The notes beneath the pieces are model-generated. The model searched no databases. It was not told the DNA's origin and saw only the letters and a list, made by a program, of their open reading frames with translations. Positions 1 to 7,496 of a DNA stretch of 7,496 bases are shown here, in pieces. Origin of the DNA: Candidatus Iainarchaeum sp. (GTDB taxonomy: Archaea > Iainarchaeota > Iainarchaeia > Iainarchaeales > CSSED10-239); the NCBI GenBank assembly GCA_028700115.1, contig JAQVTI010000021.1, positions 1-7,496 of the forward strand, written 5' to 3'. Within the stretch, counting starts at the first letter, position 1. Each line of letters starts with the position of its first letter. The translations under genes and the position numbers were made by a program.

Positions 1-191
1 TAAGTTTATACAGATTAAAATCCTGGGCAAGATGGTTAATCATAATCTTTTCATTATTTAGTTTTTCTTATTCCTTTTTAGGGCTATTGACAGGAAATTT
101 TTCAGTAATTGTTGGATTTTTAATAAACGGGGTAATTGCTTGGTATTTAATATTTGATGAGCAGGTTAAAATTAAATTTAAAGGAAAATAA
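1..191 (+). CDS. 3' end (62 codons + stop) of a small hydrophobic membrane protein of unknown function; 5' end lies outside the window
   Basis: Frame 3 (codons from nt 3) is open from the window edge to TAA 189-191: SLYRLKSWARWLIIIFSLFSFSYSFLGLLTGNFSVIVGFLINGVIAWYLIFDEQVKIKFKGK*. It has two helix-length hydrophobic runs and a Lys-rich tail. A 62-codon stop-free run is unlikely by chance in DNA this AT-rich. It is absent from the ORF track because no start lies in the window. No family recognised. Confidence 0.5.
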   Translation, partial: SLYRLKSWARWLIIIFSLFSFSYSFLGLLTGNFSVIVGFLINGVIAWYLIFDEQVKIKFKGK

Positions 192-200
192 AAGGAAGGG

Positions 201-247
201 TTTTTTAAATATTGTGTTCTAGAATTATTTTAATTATAAAAAGTGAG
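201..247 (+). promoter_or_regulatory. Candidate archaeal promoter and ribosome-binding region of the giant gene
   Basis: TTTAAATA (204-211) fits the archaeal TATA consensus TTTAWATA. A second TATA-like stretch TTTAATTATAAA lies at 228-239. GTGAG (243-247) is a partial match to GGAGGTGA, 9 nt before ATG 257. AT-rich background makes such matches common. Confidence 0.3.
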
Positions 248-256
248 TTGGTTATT

Positions 257-316
257 ATGTTAAAATATTTGAATATATTTTTTGTTATTGTGTTGTTAAT
301 GCCTTTTGCTTTTGCA
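257..316 (+). other. Predicted Sec-type signal peptide of the giant protein
   Basis: MLKYLNIFFVIVLLMPFAFA followed by ELQP: short Lys-containing n-region, 12-13 residue hydrophobic core, A-x-A at -3/-1. By-eye prediction only. Confidence 0.6.
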
Positions 317-3300
317 GAACTACAACCTGTTTTTTTAGATCAAAATATACACTATTTTGGCGAAGAAATAAATTTTGGATTAGTAGGTATTATTCCCGAC
401 GATTTTAATCGTGCAGAATTTCAAATCCAATTACCTATTGGGGACAACTATCATGAAGCTACTTTGTCTTTAACTAATTTAAGTGATTATAGTTTTTCTT
501 TTCCTTTGGATTTTATATATAACGAATTGAAAATAAAATATGTATATTATAATTTTGACAATATAGAAATATTAAATCAAGAACATTTATTAAAATTAGA
601 GAAGTTGTCAATTATAGAAAATATAGGTTATTGTATTAATTCAATCTGTAATAATACTTATTTTGATGACGTGAATGCTAATGAAATTGAATTAACTACT
701 TTTCCTAAAATTAGTGATGAAAACATAAATTTTGATATATTATTAATTTTAGATGGATATATTATAGAAGAAGTAAGAAACACTAAATTACCACATTATT
801 TTGACATAAGAGCAGGAGAGTATGAAATAAAAATAACTCCTAATTATGGGGATTTAAAATTTATAACTAAGTCTTTATTTTTAAATATAATTATAATGCA
901 AGAGAATAATAATAATTTAAGAGAATATTTGAATGAAATTAAAGAACAAGACGCAGATAAAGAAACATTTGTGCTTTTAAATAACGATGAATCTCAGATT
1001 AAAGAACTAAAAACTGAGGGCGAAAAAAATAACTTTTGGATAATTGGATTAGGAATACTTGGAGGATTGATTATTTTGATTACAATATTATTTTTTAATA
1101 AACAAAAAGATAAAAACGAAAAAACAAATAGAAGAGAACTTCGTAAAAGTAGGGGTTTTTTGTTTTTCGTATTTTTTTTATTTTTAGCGTCTTTTGCTTT
1201 TGCAACACCTCTTGATGAAAAAAATGCAGAATATAATAATTTAGAAACCAAATTTAATACATTACAAGAATTATTTCCTTATCCGAAAGCATTTACAATA
1301 AGTGTTAGTAATAGCAATCCACAAAACACACAGTATTATCCAATTTTTGCAACTGGGTTGAATGACACTCAAATCCGTCCCGTTTTAAATAATAAAACCC
1401 AAAATTTGACTGCGAATTTAGAAGCAATTTATTTTTCGATAGATATAAAGAACGCAATCGAAAAATCTAAAACTAATAACAATCCTCTTTTTTTTGAGAG
1501 CGGTTGCGAACAAGTATTAGAGTGGTTTCAAGCAAATCCAATTACAGAAGATCCAAATACTTTGATTGCAAGAACGAAAGAAAATTTATTAAAGAATATA
1601 ATAATAACGGATAAAAAAAACGGATATACCGATAGAGATGTTGTATTTATTAATAATAAACTTAATGAATTAAAAAATAACAAAAAATATAATAATTCAA
1701 TAAATCCTTATGCTGATTATTGTATTTCTGAATATTTGACTAAATTAGAATCTAATCTTGGTGGGAAATATCTTGTGGAAAAAAAAATTTTATTAAAAAT
1801 AAATTATTTTGAAAAAAACACAGAAAAAATAGAAACTCAAGATGACGAAATTACAGATACTATTGTGTTTTTAAATAACAAAAATAAAGATGTTTTAGAA
1901 GGTGAATTTTTAGGTAGCGATCTTAACCATATATTTGTTGAAGTAAATTATGTTAATGATATTTTAAAAGAACAAAGTTTAGTTTTACAAGGAATACCAA
2001 CAGATAGAATTATTAGAAAAGATAATTTAATTGAAGGCAATAAAATAAGTAACTATACTATTCCTTATTTAACAGAAGGAGAAAATTTAACTATAAAATA
2101 TACGGCTCAATTAATAAATTTAGAAATAATGGATTCCGATTATGGTAGTTATTATCAATTAGAAGAGTTGCCTGTAGATTCTTCTGAAATTTATAAAAAA
2201 GGTTTTGCTTTTGTAATTCCTGATAAAAGCATAGCTGCTTTAAGAAATAAAATTATATCTAATATAGAATTAACTGGAATGGTTCGTTTAAATAATGGCA
2301 GATACGAATTAAAATGGAACCCTGAATCGTTAGCTATTCTTGCAGAAGCAAATATTAATCCTGCAAAATTTATTATTATAGATAAAAAGATAATAATTAA
2401 TATAGGTCCAGAAAATCAAAAATTAAATTTAGGTATAGATTGGGATTACGGAATAATACTTGCCGATTCTTCTGAAATTACTTTGTTACTTGAAGAAGAA
2501 AATACCATTTATTTAACACCAAACATAACTAATTTGTATTTAGAATTACTTAAAAAAACAATTATAAAAGCAACAAGCCAAAAGAATTTAGAATTAATTA
2601 GATTACAATTGCCTATTTTTTTTATATTTACATTTAAGAAAAATGCACAAACTATTAATAATGAAGACGCATTATACTTGAAAACATATGATGAAATTGC
2701 AGATTTTCTTAAAAATACAAACCTTACTCCATTAGAAAAAAACATTATATTTAATAATTTAATTTCTTTAACTGAAGATTTTTCTTTTCCAAAACAAGGG
2801 GGTGGGCTATATAAATTTAAATATAAAACAAGATTAGTCCTTAATTACGGGCTTGTTAATTATATTGATAATCCAGAAAATATAAGTAATATTAATATAG
2901 AAAATCAATCTGCAGCAATGCCTTATTTATACGATAATGCTTATTTAGAACGAAAAGGTTTTGTTGATAAAGATTTAACTAAATTTTTGATTTTAGGATA
3001 TCTAGGAGACAATTACAGGTCTTATAATCCTGAACTAAATAAAGATTCAGCATATGATTCGTATGATTCTTATGAATCAGATTTTAAATCACAAACACAA
3101 AAAATATTTGTGGACCAAAATGCGAATGAACAAAATTGGGGGTACTATAAACAATTAATATCGTATCCATTTTATAGAACTGGATTTGAACAAAAGCCAT
3201 GTTCTTATGATAAAGTTAATTTTCCCGAATATTTCTCTGAAAGTTATTGTTCTGTTGCATATAATTTTAATTCTGAAAGTGGAAATTTTGGGACATTATA

Positions 3301-6300
3301 TAATCCAAACAATCTTAATGAGGGTTGGTTAATGCAGGATTACGACTTTCAAAATAATTATACTTCTGCATATAGATCTTTATTACTTCTTGAAGATATA
3401 GATTCTTTTAAAAACAACAAACTTACATTTAATTCAAATCAACTTAAAACATTTAATAAATTAAATGCATTTCTTAGTTTGATAGAATTAGAAGCTATAA
3501 GAAAAAGAGATTCTGGTAATACTAAAAATTATGGAACGGCATTAGTTTTATCTTATAAATTACTAGAGCTTTGGAATGGAAATTATAACGCATTAAAAGA
3601 ATATGATGATTCTAACAGACTTGGACAACAAATTTCTAATATAAATGCGGCTCTTGCGTATCAAGCAACCGTTAAATTAAAAAGCATCATTGCATCAGAC
3701 AAAATTATGAGGTTAGATGCTTATAAAAATATATATGAAACAGATTTTGATAGATTTAAAGAGTCTATTGATCCATCTGCCGGATTTTTTGATCTTACAG
3801 ATTCTGCAAGATTTATGATTACTGGTAGTTGGTTTGAAACATTTATTTTTACGGGGACTAAAAAAGATGTAGAGAAATTAGAACAAAGAGATAGAGATAA
3901 ATATAATAAATTATTACACGGCGCTTGTTGTATAGCGCAAAGATTGGGAGAATTAGAAGGTGTGTCAAATTATAAGAATTGGACGGTTGCTGAAATTAAA
4001 GATAATTACAGTCCATATTCTAAAAATAATAAAATAAAAAATGATGTTATTGGTTGGGTGACTGAAAGATCTGGGTGTAGTGGGACATTAAGAGCAAATC
4101 CAGACGATTGTGCAACAGACATATTATATTTGTATAATTCAAAAGAATATGGAAAAGACCTTTCTATTATTTTAAATGATACAAAAGAAAAAAAATCTAT
4201 AACTAATTATTTAACACAACACTATAATACTAAAGGTCAAATAAATTTAGATATTGATAATGGAGTGCAACTAAGTAGTACAGAAATAGAATTAGAAAAA
4301 GATATTGCAAAATTTAAACCCGGAACAATTGGTAGTGTTTTAAAATTTATAGATGCCGGAATTAATCCCGTGGCAATAGTTCTTACAGTGGCTACTGTGG
4401 GTATAGGTCATGGACTAGCAACAGGAACAGGTGGTTTTTTTACAAGAGTTGCGGGCGGTTTTACAGCAAAATTAGGAACTTCTACAGCTGGAAGTTTAGC
4501 GAGTACTGTGGGTGCGAGAGTAGTATATGAATTGGGGGAAAATGTAGTTATAGACGGGACATACGGAGCGTTAGCTTATAAATTGCCAAATGTTGCGGGC
4601 AAACATCCATTTTTAACTTGTATATTGTTGGGTGTTGTTGCTGGAAATTTTCAAAAACCTTTAGCTAGTTTGGATAATGCTGCAAAAATAATGACTACAG
4701 ATATAATTACAAATGCTGGTTTAAAAAATGCAGACAGTATAAAAATACAAACTGCAATAAAAGAGTCGTTAAATTTAGATTATCAAGATACTGCTGAGCA
4801 ATTATTGAAATTAAAAAGCGGAGAGTCTGCAACAGATGCATTTTTTAAAAAACTACCTAAAGTCGCGGCAGGTTCTGTTGATGATGAACTTGTTAATTCC
4901 ATACAAAAAAATCTAGTGGCTCAAAAAATTTCTGTAAGTGCGGATGTTATAAAAAAAAGTTTAGAAAATAACAATATATATTTAACAACAAGAGCAACGG
5001 CAGTTTCTAAATTTAAATCAACTAAAAGTCTTATAGAAATAAATAGAATGGTTGAAGCAAATTTAGATGAATCTTCTGATAAATTTATTAAATTAGCGAC
5101 AAACCGAACAGTGCCTGAAAGACATGGAATTAAATTTGCAAATATCGTTGACGAATTTGACGATTTAAAAAGATTCAACGAAATTGACCCAGAACATTTT
5201 GCAAAACCAACAAGAATAATATACGATGATTTTGGAAATCCATTAGGTTATGAGATGGATAAAATAAACGGGTTTACTCTTGCAGATTATATTGAAGGGG
5301 GCGGCACACTAGATGATTCTTTTTATAAGAGAATAGAAGATTCTGTCGAAAAATTACATAAGCAAGGATATGCTCACGGCGATATTAATCCTAGAAATAT
5401 AATAATTACTCAAACACCAGAAGGATTAGATTTTAAAATAATAGACCCGGTTGGCTTTAGAAAGCTTGCAGACAATGTAAATTTAAGAAGCACAACAGAT
5501 ACAATAATAAATGACGACACTATAAATGTTAGAAATTTAAAGAACTATACAACTTCTGATCAAATATATTATCAAACAAATTATGTTCCAAAAAATACGG
5601 CATCTCCAGGAATTAAATCAGGCGATTATGTAGTTATAGAAAATAGTACGACTAATAAAATTGGAAAAATACAAATAACACAAGATGGCAGATATTGGAT
5701 AAATTTTTCGGATGGTTCCTCAGGGTATTATAATGAATTAGATATTATAAATATGAAAAACCTAGATAATTATAAGAAACTAGTAGATACAAGTTATATA
5801 AATACATACACTGATGATTATTTAGGTGGACCATTTTTAGAAACACCGAAAAAATTACCAGACACATTTATTTTTAAAAGTACAAATAATTTGGATGGAA
5901 GAGAAATTATTCTTGTTGATAAATTAAATGACCCTATACTAAAAAATTTTTTGTCAGATTTAAAATTAGATTTAAAAAACCTCAGCAGGAGGGATGAATT
6001 TGGTACATTTCTGGATAAAGTATCTTTGGTTAAACAAAGAGTGGATTCTGTAATGAGTCATTATCAAGATTTGGAAAACAGAACAAATTTACTAAAAAAT
6101 ATAATTAACAATAAAGATGTTTCTGGGCAAGTTGTTCCATTAGGTTATTTTATAAATAATAATATAGGGGTTTGTAGACATCGAGCATTATTATATAAAT
6201 TAGCATTAGATGAAATAGATATTAGGTCAACAATAGTAAGAGGTTGGAAAAAAATTGATGGTCTAGATGTAAGACACTCGTGGGTAGAAATAAACGATCC

Positions 6301-7189
6301 CGGAATATCTCGGATGGTAAATGTAGAAGTAGGGGATGGATTTGAGTTAGTGGAATCTTATAAGGGTGTTGGATTTAAGCAATATTTACTTCCGGATGAA
6401 ATGTATGTAGAAAACTATGTAGGAATAAGAAGTATATCAGATTTAGGTCTTGTTGCTGACGAATATTTGCTGTTATATACTCCTCCAAAAGGCGCCGTAG
6501 CCACTGGAGATGGTTTTTTGCATAATAGGAATCCATATCAACACGGTTATAGTACAACAAAGAATTTACAAACAATTGAAATAAAAATAAATAATGCATT
6601 AAAAAATAATTATAGTTTAACTACTTTAGATGACTCGGCGTTTAATAGCGATTCGATAGGATATGCACTTAGAAATATTAATTCAGAATATAGTTCGAAT
6701 GATATAACACAATTAATGATTTATCAGCATCAAAAAATTCAGGATTATATAGATGGCGATATGATATTTTCGCATATATATAAATTAGATAATCCGGTAA
6801 GTAGGAGTTATTTAACAACAGATCAGATTTTGTCTTTAAAAGAAAGAGTGGTGGCTGATTTAAAACAACAAAATATCATTATTCGTTTGGCTGAAGACGG
6901 ATCTATTCAAAAATCATATGGTGCAGGAAAATATAGTTCATTAACGATGATTTCTAGTGGCGAATCTATAATATCAATAGAAAAATCGGCATTTAACGAT
7001 ATAAGTATATTTTCAAAAGAAATGCAAAAAAATTACGCGGTGTGGAGGTTTTCAAAACTTTACGGAAGTAAAGATAAAATTCCGGTATTTTTAATCCCAA
7101 CCCCTGATGGACAGGGCGTGAAACCAATTTGGGCGACTGAGTATTATACAGACTATTATTCTAAAAATTACAACGAATTATTCAATTAA
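257..7189 (+). CDS. Giant multi-domain membrane protein (hypothetical): signal peptide, ecto modules, TM segments, kinase-like domain, SH3/Tudor-like barrel, EDR1/transglutaminase-like Cys-His domain
   Basis: Single stop-free frame 212-7189 on the ORF track. I prefer ATG 257 (2,310 codons) because it yields a canonical signal peptide MLKYLNIFFVIVLLMPFAFA|ELQ. It is preceded by GTGAG (243-247, 9 nt spacing) and TATA-like TTTAAATA (204-211), which TTG 212 would abut. TTG 212 remains possible, with AGGAAGGG at 193-200 upstream. The other five frames are shattered. Block-wise composition and catalytic-looking motifs support real coding. Confidence 0.9.
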   Translation: MLKYLNIFFVIVLLMPFAFAELQPVFLDQNIHYFGEEINFGLVGIIPDDFNRAEFQIQLPIGDNYHEATLSLTNLSDYSFSFPLDFIYNELKIKYVYYNFDNIEILNQEHLLKLEKLSIIENIGYCINSICNNTYFDDVNANEIELTTFPKISDENINFDILLILDGYIIEEVRNTKLPHYFDIRAGEYEIKITPNYGDLKFITKSLFLNIIIMQENNNNLREYLNEIKEQDADKETFVLLNNDESQIKELKTEGEKNNFWIIGLGILGGLIILITILFFNKQKDKNEKTNRRELRKSRGFLFFVFFLFLASFAFATPLDEKNAEYNNLETKFNTLQELFPYPKAFTISVSNSNPQNTQYYPIFATGLNDTQIRPVLNNKTQNLTANLEAIYFSIDIKNAIEKSKTNNNPLFFESGCEQVLEWFQANPITEDPNTLIARTKENLLKNIIITDKKNGYTDRDVVFINNKLNELKNNKKYNNSINPYADYCISEYLTKLESNLGGKYLVEKKILLKINYFEKNTEKIETQDDEITDTIVFLNNKNKDVLEGEFLGSDLNHIFVEVNYVNDILKEQSLVLQGIPTDRIIRKDNLIEGNKISNYTIPYLTEGENLTIKYTAQLINLEIMDSDYGSYYQLEELPVDSSEIYKKGFAFVIPDKSIAALRNKIISNIELTGMVRLNNGRYELKWNPESLAILAEANINPAKFIIIDKKIIINIGPENQKLNLGIDWDYGIILADSSEITLLLEEENTIYLTPNITNLYLELLKKTIIKATSQKNLELIRLQLPIFFIFTFKKNAQTINNEDALYLKTYDEIADFLKNTNLTPLEKNIIFNNLISLTEDFSFPKQGGGLYKFKYKTRLVLNYGLVNYIDNPENISNINIENQSAAMPYLYDNAYLERKGFVDKDLTKFLILGYLGDNYRSYNPELNKDSAYDSYDSYESDFKSQTQKIFVDQNANEQNWGYYKQLISYPFYRTGFEQKPCSYDKVNFPEYFSESYCSVAYNFNSESGNFGTLYNPNNLNEGWLMQDYDFQNNYTSAYRSLLLLEDIDSFKNNKLTFNSNQLKTFNKLNAFLSLIELEAIRKRDSGNTKNYGTALVLSYKLLELWNGNYNALKEYDDSNRLGQQISNINAALAYQATVKLKSIIASDKIMRLDAYKNIYETDFDRFKESIDPSAGFFDLTDSARFMITGSWFETFIFTGTKKDVEKLEQRDRDKYNKLLHGACCIAQRLGELEGVSNYKNWTVAEIKDNYSPYSKNNKIKNDVIGWVTERSGCSGTLRANPDDCATDILYLYNSKEYGKDLSIILNDTKEKKSITNYLTQHYNTKGQINLDIDNGVQLSSTEIELEKDIAKFKPGTIGSVLKFIDAGINPVAIVLTVATVGIGHGLATGTGGFFTRVAGGFTAKLGTSTAGSLASTVGARVVYELGENVVIDGTYGALAYKLPNVAGKHPFLTCILLGVVAGNFQKPLASLDNAAKIMTTDIITNAGLKNADSIKIQTAIKESLNLDYQDTAEQLLKLKSGESATDAFFKKLPKVAAGSVDDELVNSIQKNLVAQKISVSADVIKKSLENNNIYLTTRATAVSKFKSTKSLIEINRMVEANLDESSDKFIKLATNRTVPERHGIKFANIVDEFDDLKRFNEIDPEHFAKPTRIIYDDFGNPLGYEMDKINGFTLADYIEGGGTLDDSFYKRIEDSVEKLHKQGYAHGDINPRNIIITQTPEGLDFKIIDPVGFRKLADNVNLRSTTDTIINDDTINVRNLKNYTTSDQIYYQTNYVPKNTASPGIKSGDYVVIENSTTNKIGKIQITQDGRYWINFSDGSSGYYNELDIINMKNLDNYKKLVDTSYINTYTDDYLGGPFLETPKKLPDTFIFKSTNNLDGREIILVDKLNDPILKNFLSDLKLDLKNLSRRDEFGTFLDKVSLVKQRVDSVMSHYQDLENRTNLLKNIINNKDVSGQVVPLGYFINNNIGVCRHRALLYKLALDEIDIRSTIVRGWKKIDGLDVRHSWVEINDPGISRMVNVEVGDGFELVESYKGVGFKQYLLPDEMYVENYVGIRSISDLGLVADEYLLLYTPPKGAVATGDGFLHNRNPYQHGYSTTKNLQTIEIKINNALKNNYSLTTLDDSAFNSDSIGYALRNINSEYSSNDITQLMIYQHQKIQDYIDGDMIFSHIYKLDNPVSRSYLTTDQILSLKERVVADLKQQNIIIRLAEDGSIQKSYGAGKYSSLTMISSGESIISIEKSAFNDISIFSKEMQKNYAVWRFSKLYGSKDKIPVFLIPTPDGQGVKPIWATEYYTDYYSKNYNELFN
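1034..1204 (+). other. TM helix, basic loop and second signal-peptide-like helix
   Basis: FWIIGLGILGGLIILITILFF (1034-1096), NKQKDKNEKTNRRELRKSRG (1097-1156), FLFFVFFLFLASFAFA (1157-1204), then TPLD. The loop has 9 Lys/Arg in 20 residues, which fits a cytoplasmic loop under the positive-inside rule. Confidence 0.6.
4322..4651 (+). other. Gly/Ala/Val/Thr-rich hydrophobic island with at least two TM-length segments and a GxxxGxxxG motif
   Basis: GTIGSVLKFIDAGINPVAIVLTVATVGIGHGLATGTGGFF...KHPFLTCILLGVVAGNF. GIGHGLATG is at 4400-4426. There is an abrupt local rise in G+C relative to the rest of the gene. Confidence 0.55.
4976..5470 (+). other. Minimal protein-kinase-like (Bud32/RIO/Kdo-like) domain
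   Basis: Catalytic-loop-like GYAHGDINPRNIII (His 5375-5377, Asp 5381-5383, Asn 5396-5398). Metal-binding DFG-equivalent FKIIDPVGF (Asp 5444-5446). Hinge-like GYEMDKINGFTLADYI (5246-5293). Candidate beta3 Lys in AVSKF (5009-5011). No obvious Gly-rich loop or APE segment. The N boundary is uncertain. Confidence 0.55.
5897..6400 (+). other. EDR1-like / transglutaminase-like papain-fold domain with candidate Cys-His-acidic triad
   Basis: GREIILVDKLNDPILKNF ... VVPLGYFINNNIGVCRHRALLYKLALDEIDIRSTIVRG ... DVRHSWVEIND ... MVNVEVGDG. Cys 6173-6175, His 6275-6277, acidic candidates Glu 6326-6328 or Asp 6335-6337. The pattern G-x-C...(basic)V.G...H.W.E fits the transglutaminase-like core. CRHRALL[FY]K matches my memory of plant EDR1/CTR1 N-terminal domains. 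Confidence 0.6.
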
Positions 7190-7231
7190 GCATCACCGTA
7201 ATTTGATATTTAATAAGCAAGTAAAAGCTGC

Positions 7232-7255
7232 TTTTAAATGAGGCTATTTTATTTT
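7232..7255 (+). terminator. Oligo-T tracts downstream of the giant gene (possible archaeal intrinsic termination signal)
   Basis: T4 runs at 7232-7235, 7247-7250 and 7252-7255, 43-66 nt after the stop codon. They are preceded by a weak AT-rich near-palindrome AAAAGCTGCTTTT (7223-7235). Archaeal RNAP terminates at oligo-T tracts, but such tracts are abundant here. Confidence 0.2.
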
Positions 7256-7278
7256 AAATACCCTTTTTAATACTTACT

Positions 7279-7342
7279 TATCTATATTATATATTAGATA
7301 GACTTTTTATTCATAAATATCTTTAAAAACAAAAATAGGTGA
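7279..7342 (+). promoter_or_regulatory. Candidate psmA promoter (TATA-like TATATTATATATT 7283-7295) and Shine-Dalgarno AGGTGA (7337-7342)
   Basis: GGTGA is complementary to the conserved 16S rRNA 3' end and sits 6 nt from TTG 7349 (good support). The TATA-like element lies 54-66 nt upstream of the start, compatible with a transcription start near 7315-7320 and a short leader (weak support in AT-rich DNA). Confidence 0.4.
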
Positions 7343-7348
7343 AAAATT

Positions 7349-7496
7349 TTGATTCCAAATTCTCTTGGAGCTGCTGCTGCAGGTTATGATCGTTCAATAA
7401 CAATGTTTAGTCCAGAAGGACATCTTTATCAGGTAGATTATGCCTCAAAGATTATAGAAAAAGGAAGTCCTGCTATCGGGATTATCTATAAGCAAG
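7349..7496 (+). CDS. psmA: Proteasome subunit alpha (archaeal 20S core), 5' part only; continues past window end
   Basis: Translation from TTG 7349: (M)[48 protein letters not shown]. It matches the alpha-subunit N-terminal signature YDRxITxFSPxGxLxQVEYA (Thermoplasma PsmA has ...[32 protein letters not shown]). An in-frame TGA at 7340-7342 excludes a longer N-terminus. The next ATG would delete the conserved YDR motif. GGTGA lies at 7338-7342, 6 nt upstream. It is missing from the ORF track because of the non-ATG start and truncation. Confidence 0.9.

Follow-up and report, generated by a model that had tools for sequence, protein, structure and literature searches.

Proteins in which an EDR1 domain is combined with a protein kinase have been called unique to plants and protozoans (PMC5874906), and EDR1 proteins, which are often fused to kinases of family PF07714, closely resemble peptidases of families C71 and C93 (PMC10318531). 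Giant proteins of DPANN archaea, 8,000–9,400 amino acids (aa) in length, have been described in which one chain unites an enzymatic domain in the cytosol with membrane spans, a very large ectodomain, and a signal peptide (PMC10266531). Here we analyze a stretch of 7,496 bases (contig JAQVTI010000021.1, positions 1–7,496; hereafter, the window), with a G+C content of ~27%, which the open reading frame (ORF) list and translation show to be filled almost completely by a single ORF for a protein of 2,310 aa. The ORF lies at 257..7189 on the + strand, as do all window features given below, with an ATG at 257 and a stop codon at 7187–7189. An earlier note on this sequence, concerned with 4976–6400 (aa 1574–2048 of the window protein), had proposed that a kinase-like and an EDR1-like domain share this polypeptide in an order opposite to that of the plant proteins CTR1 and EDR1, and that the two may form a functional unit older than the plant proteins suggest.

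The two domains are indeed joined on one polypeptide: the EDR1 call stands above the curated PF14381 cutoff, and the kinase call is carried by a 49-member profile and by Foldseek matches. The order is also as proposed, with the kinase at aa 1605–1745 and the EDR1 domain at aa 1850–2025. The proposal of an ancient kinase/EDR1 unit shared with plant CTR1/EDR1 did not hold up, since kinase and EDR1 meet only within one orthologous group. Besides the window protein, this group comprises four distinct sequences, all on low-GC archaeal contigs: P0002 (loci L002 and L047), P0003, P0005, and a short form, P0001 (also L048). Full-length orthologues are 2,233–2,340 aa long (2,336 aa for the archaeal orthologue at L002) and have the same domain order; the end-to-end architecture is conserved in P0002, P0003, and P0005 and at loci L002 and L047, with identities of 28–47%. 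No record of the window protein was returned when its exact sequence was looked up. The architecture is new, its component families are known, and together these sequences make up a small archaeal protein family.

A Predicted EDR1-Type Thiol Enzyme Domain

The EDR1/CTR1/ARMC3 peptidase-like domain (aa 1850–2025; 5804..6331), with C1973, H2007, and N2022, was identified by PF14381, by alignments, and by fold matches. When the whole protein was searched, PF14381 matched aa 1861–2012 with an E value of 1.5e-10 and 41.6 bits (curated cutoff, 27); the isolated domain scored 44.9. This alignment ends at aa 2012, before the third triad position. The domain carries the motifs GVC(1973)RHRALL and RH(2007)SW. 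In alignments with 22–36 homologues (A4, A5, A7, and A10), the Cys1973 and His2007 columns are invariant or nearly so, and both motifs are held across all orthologues and ~60 homologues.

An AlphaFold model of aa 1760–2310 had a mean predicted local distance difference test score (pLDDT) of 71.8, with values of 70–93 in the EDR1 part. Foldseek matches to this part included TglA (9crn, E 1.5e-4), a Cytophaga protease (3isr), FXIIIa/TG2, PeiP, VASH, NAT, and a LapG complex. In a family-profile search, no member of the EDR1 family was found among solved structures, and the best solved relative was again TglA (E 7e-6). Sequence and model together give sound grounds for assigning to the EDR1-like domain a predicted transglutaminase-like/papain-like cysteine enzyme fold. 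The stretch that follows the His/Asn strands (6332–6540) is poorly modelled, with pLDDT <50 at model residues 268–302 (aa 2027–2061), and part of it is an insertion that has no counterpart in the orthologues.

A Minimal Kinase-like Domain

The minimal protein-kinase-like domain (aa 1605–1745; 5069..5491) includes K1612, E1633, H1707-G-D1709, N1714, and D1730, the last within an IDPVG motif. The β3 Lys, αC Glu, HxD motif, downstream Asn, and metal-binding Asp are thus all present. Taken as a single sequence, the domain reached the curated cutoffs of neither PK_Tyr_Ser-Thr nor Pkinase (16.5 bits versus 31.7 for the latter) and also stayed below that of Kdo (16.9 versus 21.3). Bud32/PrkT models matched it with E ~2e-5, the Bud32 model TIGR03724 scoring 23.8 bits against a cutoff of 125; among sequences in the PDB, ULK2 was matched with E 6e-4 and NleH/OspG with E 0.05.

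Relatives made the assignment much clearer. An exhaustive search of 1.84 billion cluster representatives (50% identity) gave 194 significant matches, most of which align to the kinase-like domain only. In a 49-sequence alignment, the His and Asp of HGD and the Asp-Pro of IDPVG are invariant, and the Asn, the Glu, and several Gly and Pro are nearly so; the family signature reads RTxPxRxG ... IDPEH ... GYxME ... HGDxNxxNI ... IDPVG. The corresponding profile matched solved kinases with E values of 1.6e-13 to 1e-8. Its alignment to RIO2 spans profile positions 48–176 of 187; those to eukaryotic-type kinases mostly run from the hinge to the DFG motif (85–146). Tested member by member, Pkinase matched 42 of the 49 sequences, RIO1 matched 34 (sub-threshold), Kdo 29, and OspG_kinase 5; the Pkinase, RIO1, and Kdo matches were weak. 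A model of aa 1590–2310 had pLDDT values of 75–90 in the kinase part, for which Foldseek returned ULK2 (E 2e-4), WbdD, JAK1, RIO2, and Bud32/PRPK, pointing to a bilobal kinase fold.

Conservation within the family begins at the [FY][FY]K strand, and the model puts a low-confidence helix at the position of the Gly-rich loop. The DFG-equivalent IDPVG is followed by ~30–50 residues with one helix before the linker, and the conserved core is ~140 aa. On this combined evidence, we assign the domain to the protein kinase-like superfamily as a predicted minimal fold of ~140 residues, and not to the TKL/Raf kinases. The family as a whole is of prokaryotic or viral type, with RIO2 as its closest full-length alignment. 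Its relatives, counted as cluster representatives at 50% identity, exceed 110 and are mostly stand-alone proteins of 170–300 aa; the mini-kinase also occurs within giant proteins of 2,000–6,500 aa, three of them with a PP2C phosphatase and one with GGDEF. The ~140-residue mini-kinases constitute a sizeable family, whose representative in the window falls below every curated Pfam and NCBIfam cutoff. One mini-kinase-bearing giant, P0013 (6,244 aa), is flanked on its own strand by two further giants, of 6,385 aa and 2,192 aa, in a tandem array of giant genes (L046 1–30735, contig CAZSAP010000002.1, 322.5 kb).

All five catalytic kinase residues are retained in 4 of the 5 orthologues. In the fifth, P0005, neither the Lys nor the Glu remains, the catalytic Asp (HGN) and the metal-binding Asp (GSP) are gone as well, and the EDR1-like Cys-His-Asp is intact; by its sequence it is a natural pseudokinase variant. 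Loss of the kinase residues with retention of the thiol site suggests that the kinase fold has an at least partly non-catalytic role, for example in nucleotide binding or regulation. The conserved catalytic core of these proteins seems to be the thiol enzyme, because its Cys and His are invariant in the orthologues and because P0005 keeps Cys-His-Asp alongside a dead kinase. P0005 can thus be viewed as a natural experiment.

A barrel separates the two domains, as the earlier note had also described. This small β-barrel, SH3-like in size (aa 1790–1836; 5624..5764), was recognized from model strands: four short strands at aa 1790–1825 with pLDDT 63–82 (E32–36, E41–48, E54–58, and E63–66 in the model of aa 1760–2310). 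There is one barrel in the window protein and two in P0001, P0002, P0003, and P0005. At 5492–5623, the window has a deletion of ~60–90 residues relative to its closest relative (the second barrel; alignment A3, columns ~195–290).

Kinase and EDR1 Domains Meet in a Single Orthologous Group

The co-occurrence of the two domains was surveyed among the homologues nearest to the window domain and in one motif-restricted genome scan. In a per-domain search of the best 150 representatives of the 194, more than 110 carried the kinase only, 33 carried EDR1 only, and 4 carried both. These four are P0001, P0002, P0003, and P0005, all of them orthologous to the window protein and arranged in the identical domain order. 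The genome scan, in which each prokaryotic species was represented by a single genome, used the motif GVCRH[RK]ALL, taken from a 7-sequence alignment, and yielded 40 EDR1-like loci in Planctomycetota, Verrucomicrobiota, Margulisbacteria, Patescibacteria, Chlamydiales, Myxococcota, Gammaproteobacteria, and one archaeon (L002). Pfam kinase families were found neither in the 37 host ORFs scanned nor in the 33 EDR1-only representatives. When the mini-kinase profile was run against the 40 host ORFs, a kinase in the same ORF was detected only in L002, and a kinase gene of any kind lay within 8 kb at 3 of the 40 loci. Nine further EDR1-like matches from a word-index search had PF14381 alone or no recorded family, and none had a kinase. 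The 36 non-orthologous EDR1-like ORFs from bacterial and archaeal genomes are all without a kinase; overall, ~70 non-orthologous EDR1-like proteins have no kinase, and the mini-kinase has more than 110 relatives with no EDR1 domain. Within the limits of this sample, prokaryotic EDR1 domains are not recurrently associated with kinase folds, the outcome that the earlier note had named as refuting its proposal.

If kinase and EDR1 formed an old unit that extends from prokaryotes to CTR1/EDR1, the window protein would be an early, receptor-kinase-like version of it. Both folds are on one chain in the window protein, the combination is a recurrent eukaryotic architecture (PMC10318531, PMC5874906), and a few bacterial EDR1-like proteins have FHA domains, all of which fit such a unit. 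But the kinase is of the RIO-like minimal type and not TKL/Raf, the domain order is reversed with barrels intervening, the kinase of P0005 is degenerate, and the counts above leave one orthologous group as the only place where the domains meet. We consider the old-unit reading very improbable. A different kinase family, reversed order, barrels, and lack of recurrence argue for convergence rather than a common unit. Independent domain shuffling, named in the earlier note as the alternative, is accordingly the best-supported reading of the distribution, the kinase family, and the order. The supported reading of these sequences is that an independent fusion, within a single small family of archaea, gave rise to the pairing, which is not homologous to the plant arrangement. 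The family would then be a formal, convergent exception to the restriction of EDR1 plus kinase to plants and protozoans; it lends no support to an ancient unit and is silent on the origin of CTR1.

The genome scan also brought to light recurrent proteins of ~430 aa in Planctomycetota and Verrucomicrobiota (L005–L029; e.g., L006 674–1984 and L010 7230–8540). They have a signal peptide, a conserved N-terminal region of ~230 residues (W...FDD..W..G..PLG ... NVxAVEVHQ), and at the C terminus an EDR1-like domain whose Cys-His-Asp site is complete, and they look like secreted EDR1-type enzymes. An FHA (phosphothreonine-binding) domain accompanies EDR1 in two or three cases, of which one or more come from a bacterial genome locus; GDPD, PLD-like, ARMET_C, and PRTase-CE domains are single cases among EDR1-like proteins.

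Predicted Membrane Topology

The window protein begins with a signal-peptide-like segment (aa 1–20, MLKYLNIFFVIVLLMPFAFA; 257..316) that has a hydropathy peak of 2.08, is kept in the orthologue at L002, and is probably cleaved. It is followed by an acidic N-terminal domain (aa 21–261; 317..1039) with a conserved Cys126/131 pair; this domain is conserved across the orthologues with E values of 3e-86 to 2e-16. Kyte-Doolittle hydropathy and loop composition indicate that a membrane hairpin comes next (1040..1213), in which transmembrane (TM) helices at aa 262–280 and 301–319 (Kyte-Doolittle values, 2.83 and 2.32) flank a basic loop (aa 281–300) with a net charge of +6. The presumed ectodomain (aa 320–1357; 1214..4327) is a region of ~1,038 residues that is conserved among orthologues and contains 8 Cys in conserved near-pairs. 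Neither the N-terminal domain, the ectodomain, nor the C-terminal domain described below had a match in Pfam, NCBIfam, PHROGs, or PADLOC, and a viral fold library returned nothing informative.

Two signal-peptide-like ends in this part of the protein are near-identical: MPFAFA|E (aa 15–21; 290–316) and ASFAFA|T (aa 312–317; 1187–1213). The second hydrophobic helix looks like a second signal peptide, and the window protein may have been joined from two secreted proteins.

Between the ectodomain and the kinase lies a Gly/Ala-rich block (aa 1358–1465; 4328..4651), delimited by hydropathy and a five-sequence alignment. It is weakly hydrophobic, with a Kyte-Doolittle maximum of 1.9, and its number of spans is uncertain. 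The block contains segment A (aa ~1365–1390), a weak segment C that includes GENVVID (aa 1427–1445), and segment D (HPFLTCILLGVVAGNF, aa 1446–1462). Two block segments are hydrophobic in every orthologue; segment C is weak in the window protein and strong only in P0001. Judged by hydropathy, there are two clear segments and one weak one in the window protein and three clear ones in P0001. The earlier note had placed the tail domains directly downstream of TM segments and a 1,039-codon ectodomain. A large region flanked by hydrophobic segments is borne out, the gap between aa 319 and 1358 corresponding to the 1,039 codons; the segments before the tail turned out to be weak and of uncertain number. 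The weak middle segment contains an acidic pair, Glu1428/Asp1433 (motif GENvvlD), in all orthologues; in the window, ELGENVVID is at 4529–4555 (aa 1425–1433).

Cysteines are distributed very unevenly, with 0.8 per 100 residues in the ectodomain versus 0.12 in the tail. In the orthologues, the N-terminal region has 2 and the ectodomain 8–10, closely spaced and at conserved positions, and in the ~830-residue tail the catalytic Cys is the sole Cys in 3 of the 4 full-length proteins. Cys-paired, presumably outer regions with a nearly Cys-free tail fit an oxidizing exterior and a cytoplasmic tail. Because of the +6 loop, the Cys pairs in the presumed outer regions, and the third hydrophobic segment that is clear in P0001, we regard a cytoplasmic location of the tail as probable, if well short of certain.

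Proposed Function

The best explanation that we can offer for the window protein is a giant, lineage-specific membrane protein of an uncultured low-GC archaeon: a membrane-anchored surface protein whose cytoplasmic tail would link what happens at the ectodomain to a thiol enzyme, a peptidase or a transferase, assisted by a kinase fold and a barrel. As a whole, we give this reading an even chance of being right. Given the signal peptide and the strong hairpin of TM helices, aa 21–261 and the 1,038-residue region would be outside the cell, and the Gly/Ala-rich block, probably as three spans, would bring the chain back to the cytoplasm. There the tail would present four units: a RIO-like minimal kinase, a barrel, a Cys-His-Asn/Asp enzyme of the EDR1 family, and an alpha/beta domain. 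Working on a protein substrate at the cytoplasmic side of the membrane, the thiol enzyme might be a peptidase or might catalyze the transfer of isopeptide bonds or acyl groups. For its part, the kinase might serve as an accessory ATP-binding or phosphorylating module, and the barrel is likely to be a peptide-binding adaptor. Ectodomain events, such as contact with another cell or a surface, would be coupled to this tail. The one-component transducer that the earlier note had suggested, with ectodomain, TM segments, and cytoplasmic part in a predicted arrangement, is plausible.

Several observations weigh against the proposal of a coupled cytoplasmic tail. Asn2022 (6320–6322) occupies the third triad position of the window protein, a position that is Asp in all orthologues and in at least 90% of homologues. 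A Gly-rich loop of the GxGxxG type was not detected before K1612. Overall model confidence is modest, with predicted template modelling scores (pTM) of 0.33 and 0.54. Signal peptides occur in roughly half of the bacterial EDR1-like proteins recovered, so that the domain often acts outside the cytoplasm, and only two block segments are clearly hydrophobic in the window protein; two spans would leave the tail outside the cell. Across the orthologue loci, no conserved partner gene was found other than an upstream calcineurin-like phosphoesterase at L002 and L042.

Some of these points are shared by a different explanation, in which the protein is a surface-displayed or delivered effector: the block would be a two-helix hairpin or a translocation element, and the tail would be outside or in a partner cell. 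Such a tail might act on the envelope of a partner or be inserted in a host, with the chain processed by the thiol peptidase, by analogy with bacterial toxins that process themselves and with the giant surface proteins of DPANN archaea. The two block segments are the only ones consistently hydrophobic across the orthologues, many bacterial EDR1-like proteins are secreted, and the EDR1 family is close to LapG (C93) and PeiW/PeiP (C71), which are extracytoplasmic peptidases (PMC10318531; fold matches). Mini-kinase relatives are found inside other giants of 2,000–6,500 aa, the effectors NleH and OspG are minimal kinases of comparable size, and giant membrane-anchored proteins of DPANN archaea have been proposed as host-interaction devices (PMC10266531). 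A kinase, however, requires ATP; the tail is nearly Cys-free, in contrast to the Cys-paired ectodomain; P0001 has three hydrophobic segments; and no secretion ATPase or other delivery gene was found near the orthologues examined. We judge the effector explanation possible and unlikely on balance.

A non-enzymatic scaffold would require that the tail domains be degenerate binding modules of a structural envelope or adhesion protein. The kinase without a Gly-rich loop, its complete degeneration in P0005, and the Asn at the third triad position in the window would all be accommodated in this way. Against this, the Cys1973 and His2007 motifs are invariant in the orthologues and in ~60 homologues, five kinase catalytic residues are kept in 4 of 5 orthologues, and Cys-His-Asn is the working triad of papain. 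The scaffold strikes us as somewhat less credible than the effector. More doubtful again is a bolder version of the preferred coupling reading, in which kinase and EDR1-type folds have been fused at least twice independently (with TKL kinases in plants and protists, with a RIO-like kinase here) as the reflection of a working partnership, an outside-in sensor with an active thiol output. If true, the window protein would be a contact sensor of a small archaeon, in which the kinase fold might, for example, control the gating of a thiol peptidase close to the membrane.

The C-Terminal Domain and Genomic Context

The tail ends in an alpha/beta domain (aa 2098–2310; 6548..7186) with pLDDT values of 76–96, which is kept in P0002, P0003, and P0005 and missing from the short form P0001. 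A profile built from it had only non-significant matches in the PDB, the best being sortase (E 0.02).

P0001 (746 aa; L001 1–2300 and L048 3–2285) is the tail as a protein of its own, known from one lineage, and consists of the hydrophobic block, the kinase, two barrels, and EDR1. A metagenome scan yielded L048 as the second copy of this short form and L047 as a full-length member. An in-frame TAA is present 15 codons 5′ of the P0001 ATG, just after an upstream frame ending in ...YLE*; either the gene has been split or a nonsense mutation has recently arisen in it.

In the window, the giant ORF is preceded by the 3′ end of a gene for a small hydrophobic protein, which ends at 191, and followed at 7349–7496 by the start, apparently TTG, of an archaeal proteasome alpha-subunit gene that runs past the window edge. 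The PolD DP2 gene adjoins P0001; the neighbors of P0005 (L043 7686–14705) are MCM, eIF-1A, RIO1, and Topo VI; and PFOR and a CoA ligase of the ADP-forming acetyl-CoA-synthetase type are found near P0003. The gene context of the orthologues is archaeal housekeeping and chromosomal. At L002 (103–1281), L042 (4123–5337), and L047 (132–1346), the giant gene is immediately preceded by a gene of ~400 aa. By Pfam, it encodes the calcineurin-like phosphoesterase at L002 and L042, and L047 has a 405-aa ORF at the equivalent position; the window is without this gene.

Two other origins were considered and rejected. A role in anti-phage defense was suggested by PADLOC matches to MkoA and PD-T4-6, which are generic kinase-fold matches, and the partner genes are absent. 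A viral origin is disfavored because only a single, weak viral locus was found and because the orthologues are surrounded by archaeal housekeeping genes.

Comparison with Known Systems

The layout of the window protein is similar to that of the "SPEARE"-type DPANN giants, and both belong to small low-GC archaea. The "SPEARE"-type proteins have Ig-like repeats and a VirB4/TraG-like ATPase, whereas the window protein, at 2,310 aa, has a kinase and a thiol enzyme; no sequence relationship between the two was found, and the window family is without a secretion-ATPase neighbor. The thiol enzyme resembles LapG (C93), PeiW/PeiP (C71), TglA, and the Cytophaga protein 3isr in its fold and in a Cys-His-Asp type of site. 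It differs from them in belonging to PF14381 by sequence and in being likely cytoplasmic rather than periplasmic or extracellular.

Among kinases, RIO1/RIO2, Bud32/PRPK, the phage T7-type kinase, and NleH/OspG are also short, share the Lys, Glu, HxD, Asn, and metal-binding Asp, and likewise have neither an activation segment nor a lower C-lobe. In contrast to these minimal kinases, the window domain reaches no curated threshold, belongs to a family with its own signature, and shows no Gly-rich loop. The Raf-like kinase domain is larger, ~250–300 aa with an activation segment and a lower C-lobe, neither of which is present in the ~140-aa core of the window domain.

Plant CTR1/EDR1 and the TKLs of protists (Toxoplasma TgTKL1) likewise have PF14381 and a kinase-fold domain on one chain. 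At the level of the family model, the likeness to CTR1/EDR1 extends to the motifs GxCRHRALLxK and, upstream, REVIxVDxxxDP, which are common to both. A provisional segment of Arabidopsis CTR1 matches the prokaryotic profile as far as the Cys motif, with the His motif outside the alignment; if this holds, members of the family can be non-catalytic, as the scaffold explanation would have it. We treat this as a lead only and do not use it as evidence. Shared descent of the pairing was not detected in the domain searches and the survey. With its Cys-His site intact, the archaeal family might offer a tractable prokaryotic model for EDR1 chemistry. In the plant proteins, EDR1 lies on the N-terminal side of a TKL kinase of full length (PF07714), whereas in the window protein the minimal kinase comes first, with the barrel between the two domains. 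Finally, plant CTR1/EDR1 are soluble and recruited to a separate receptor, whereas the window protein is predicted to be itself embedded in the membrane.

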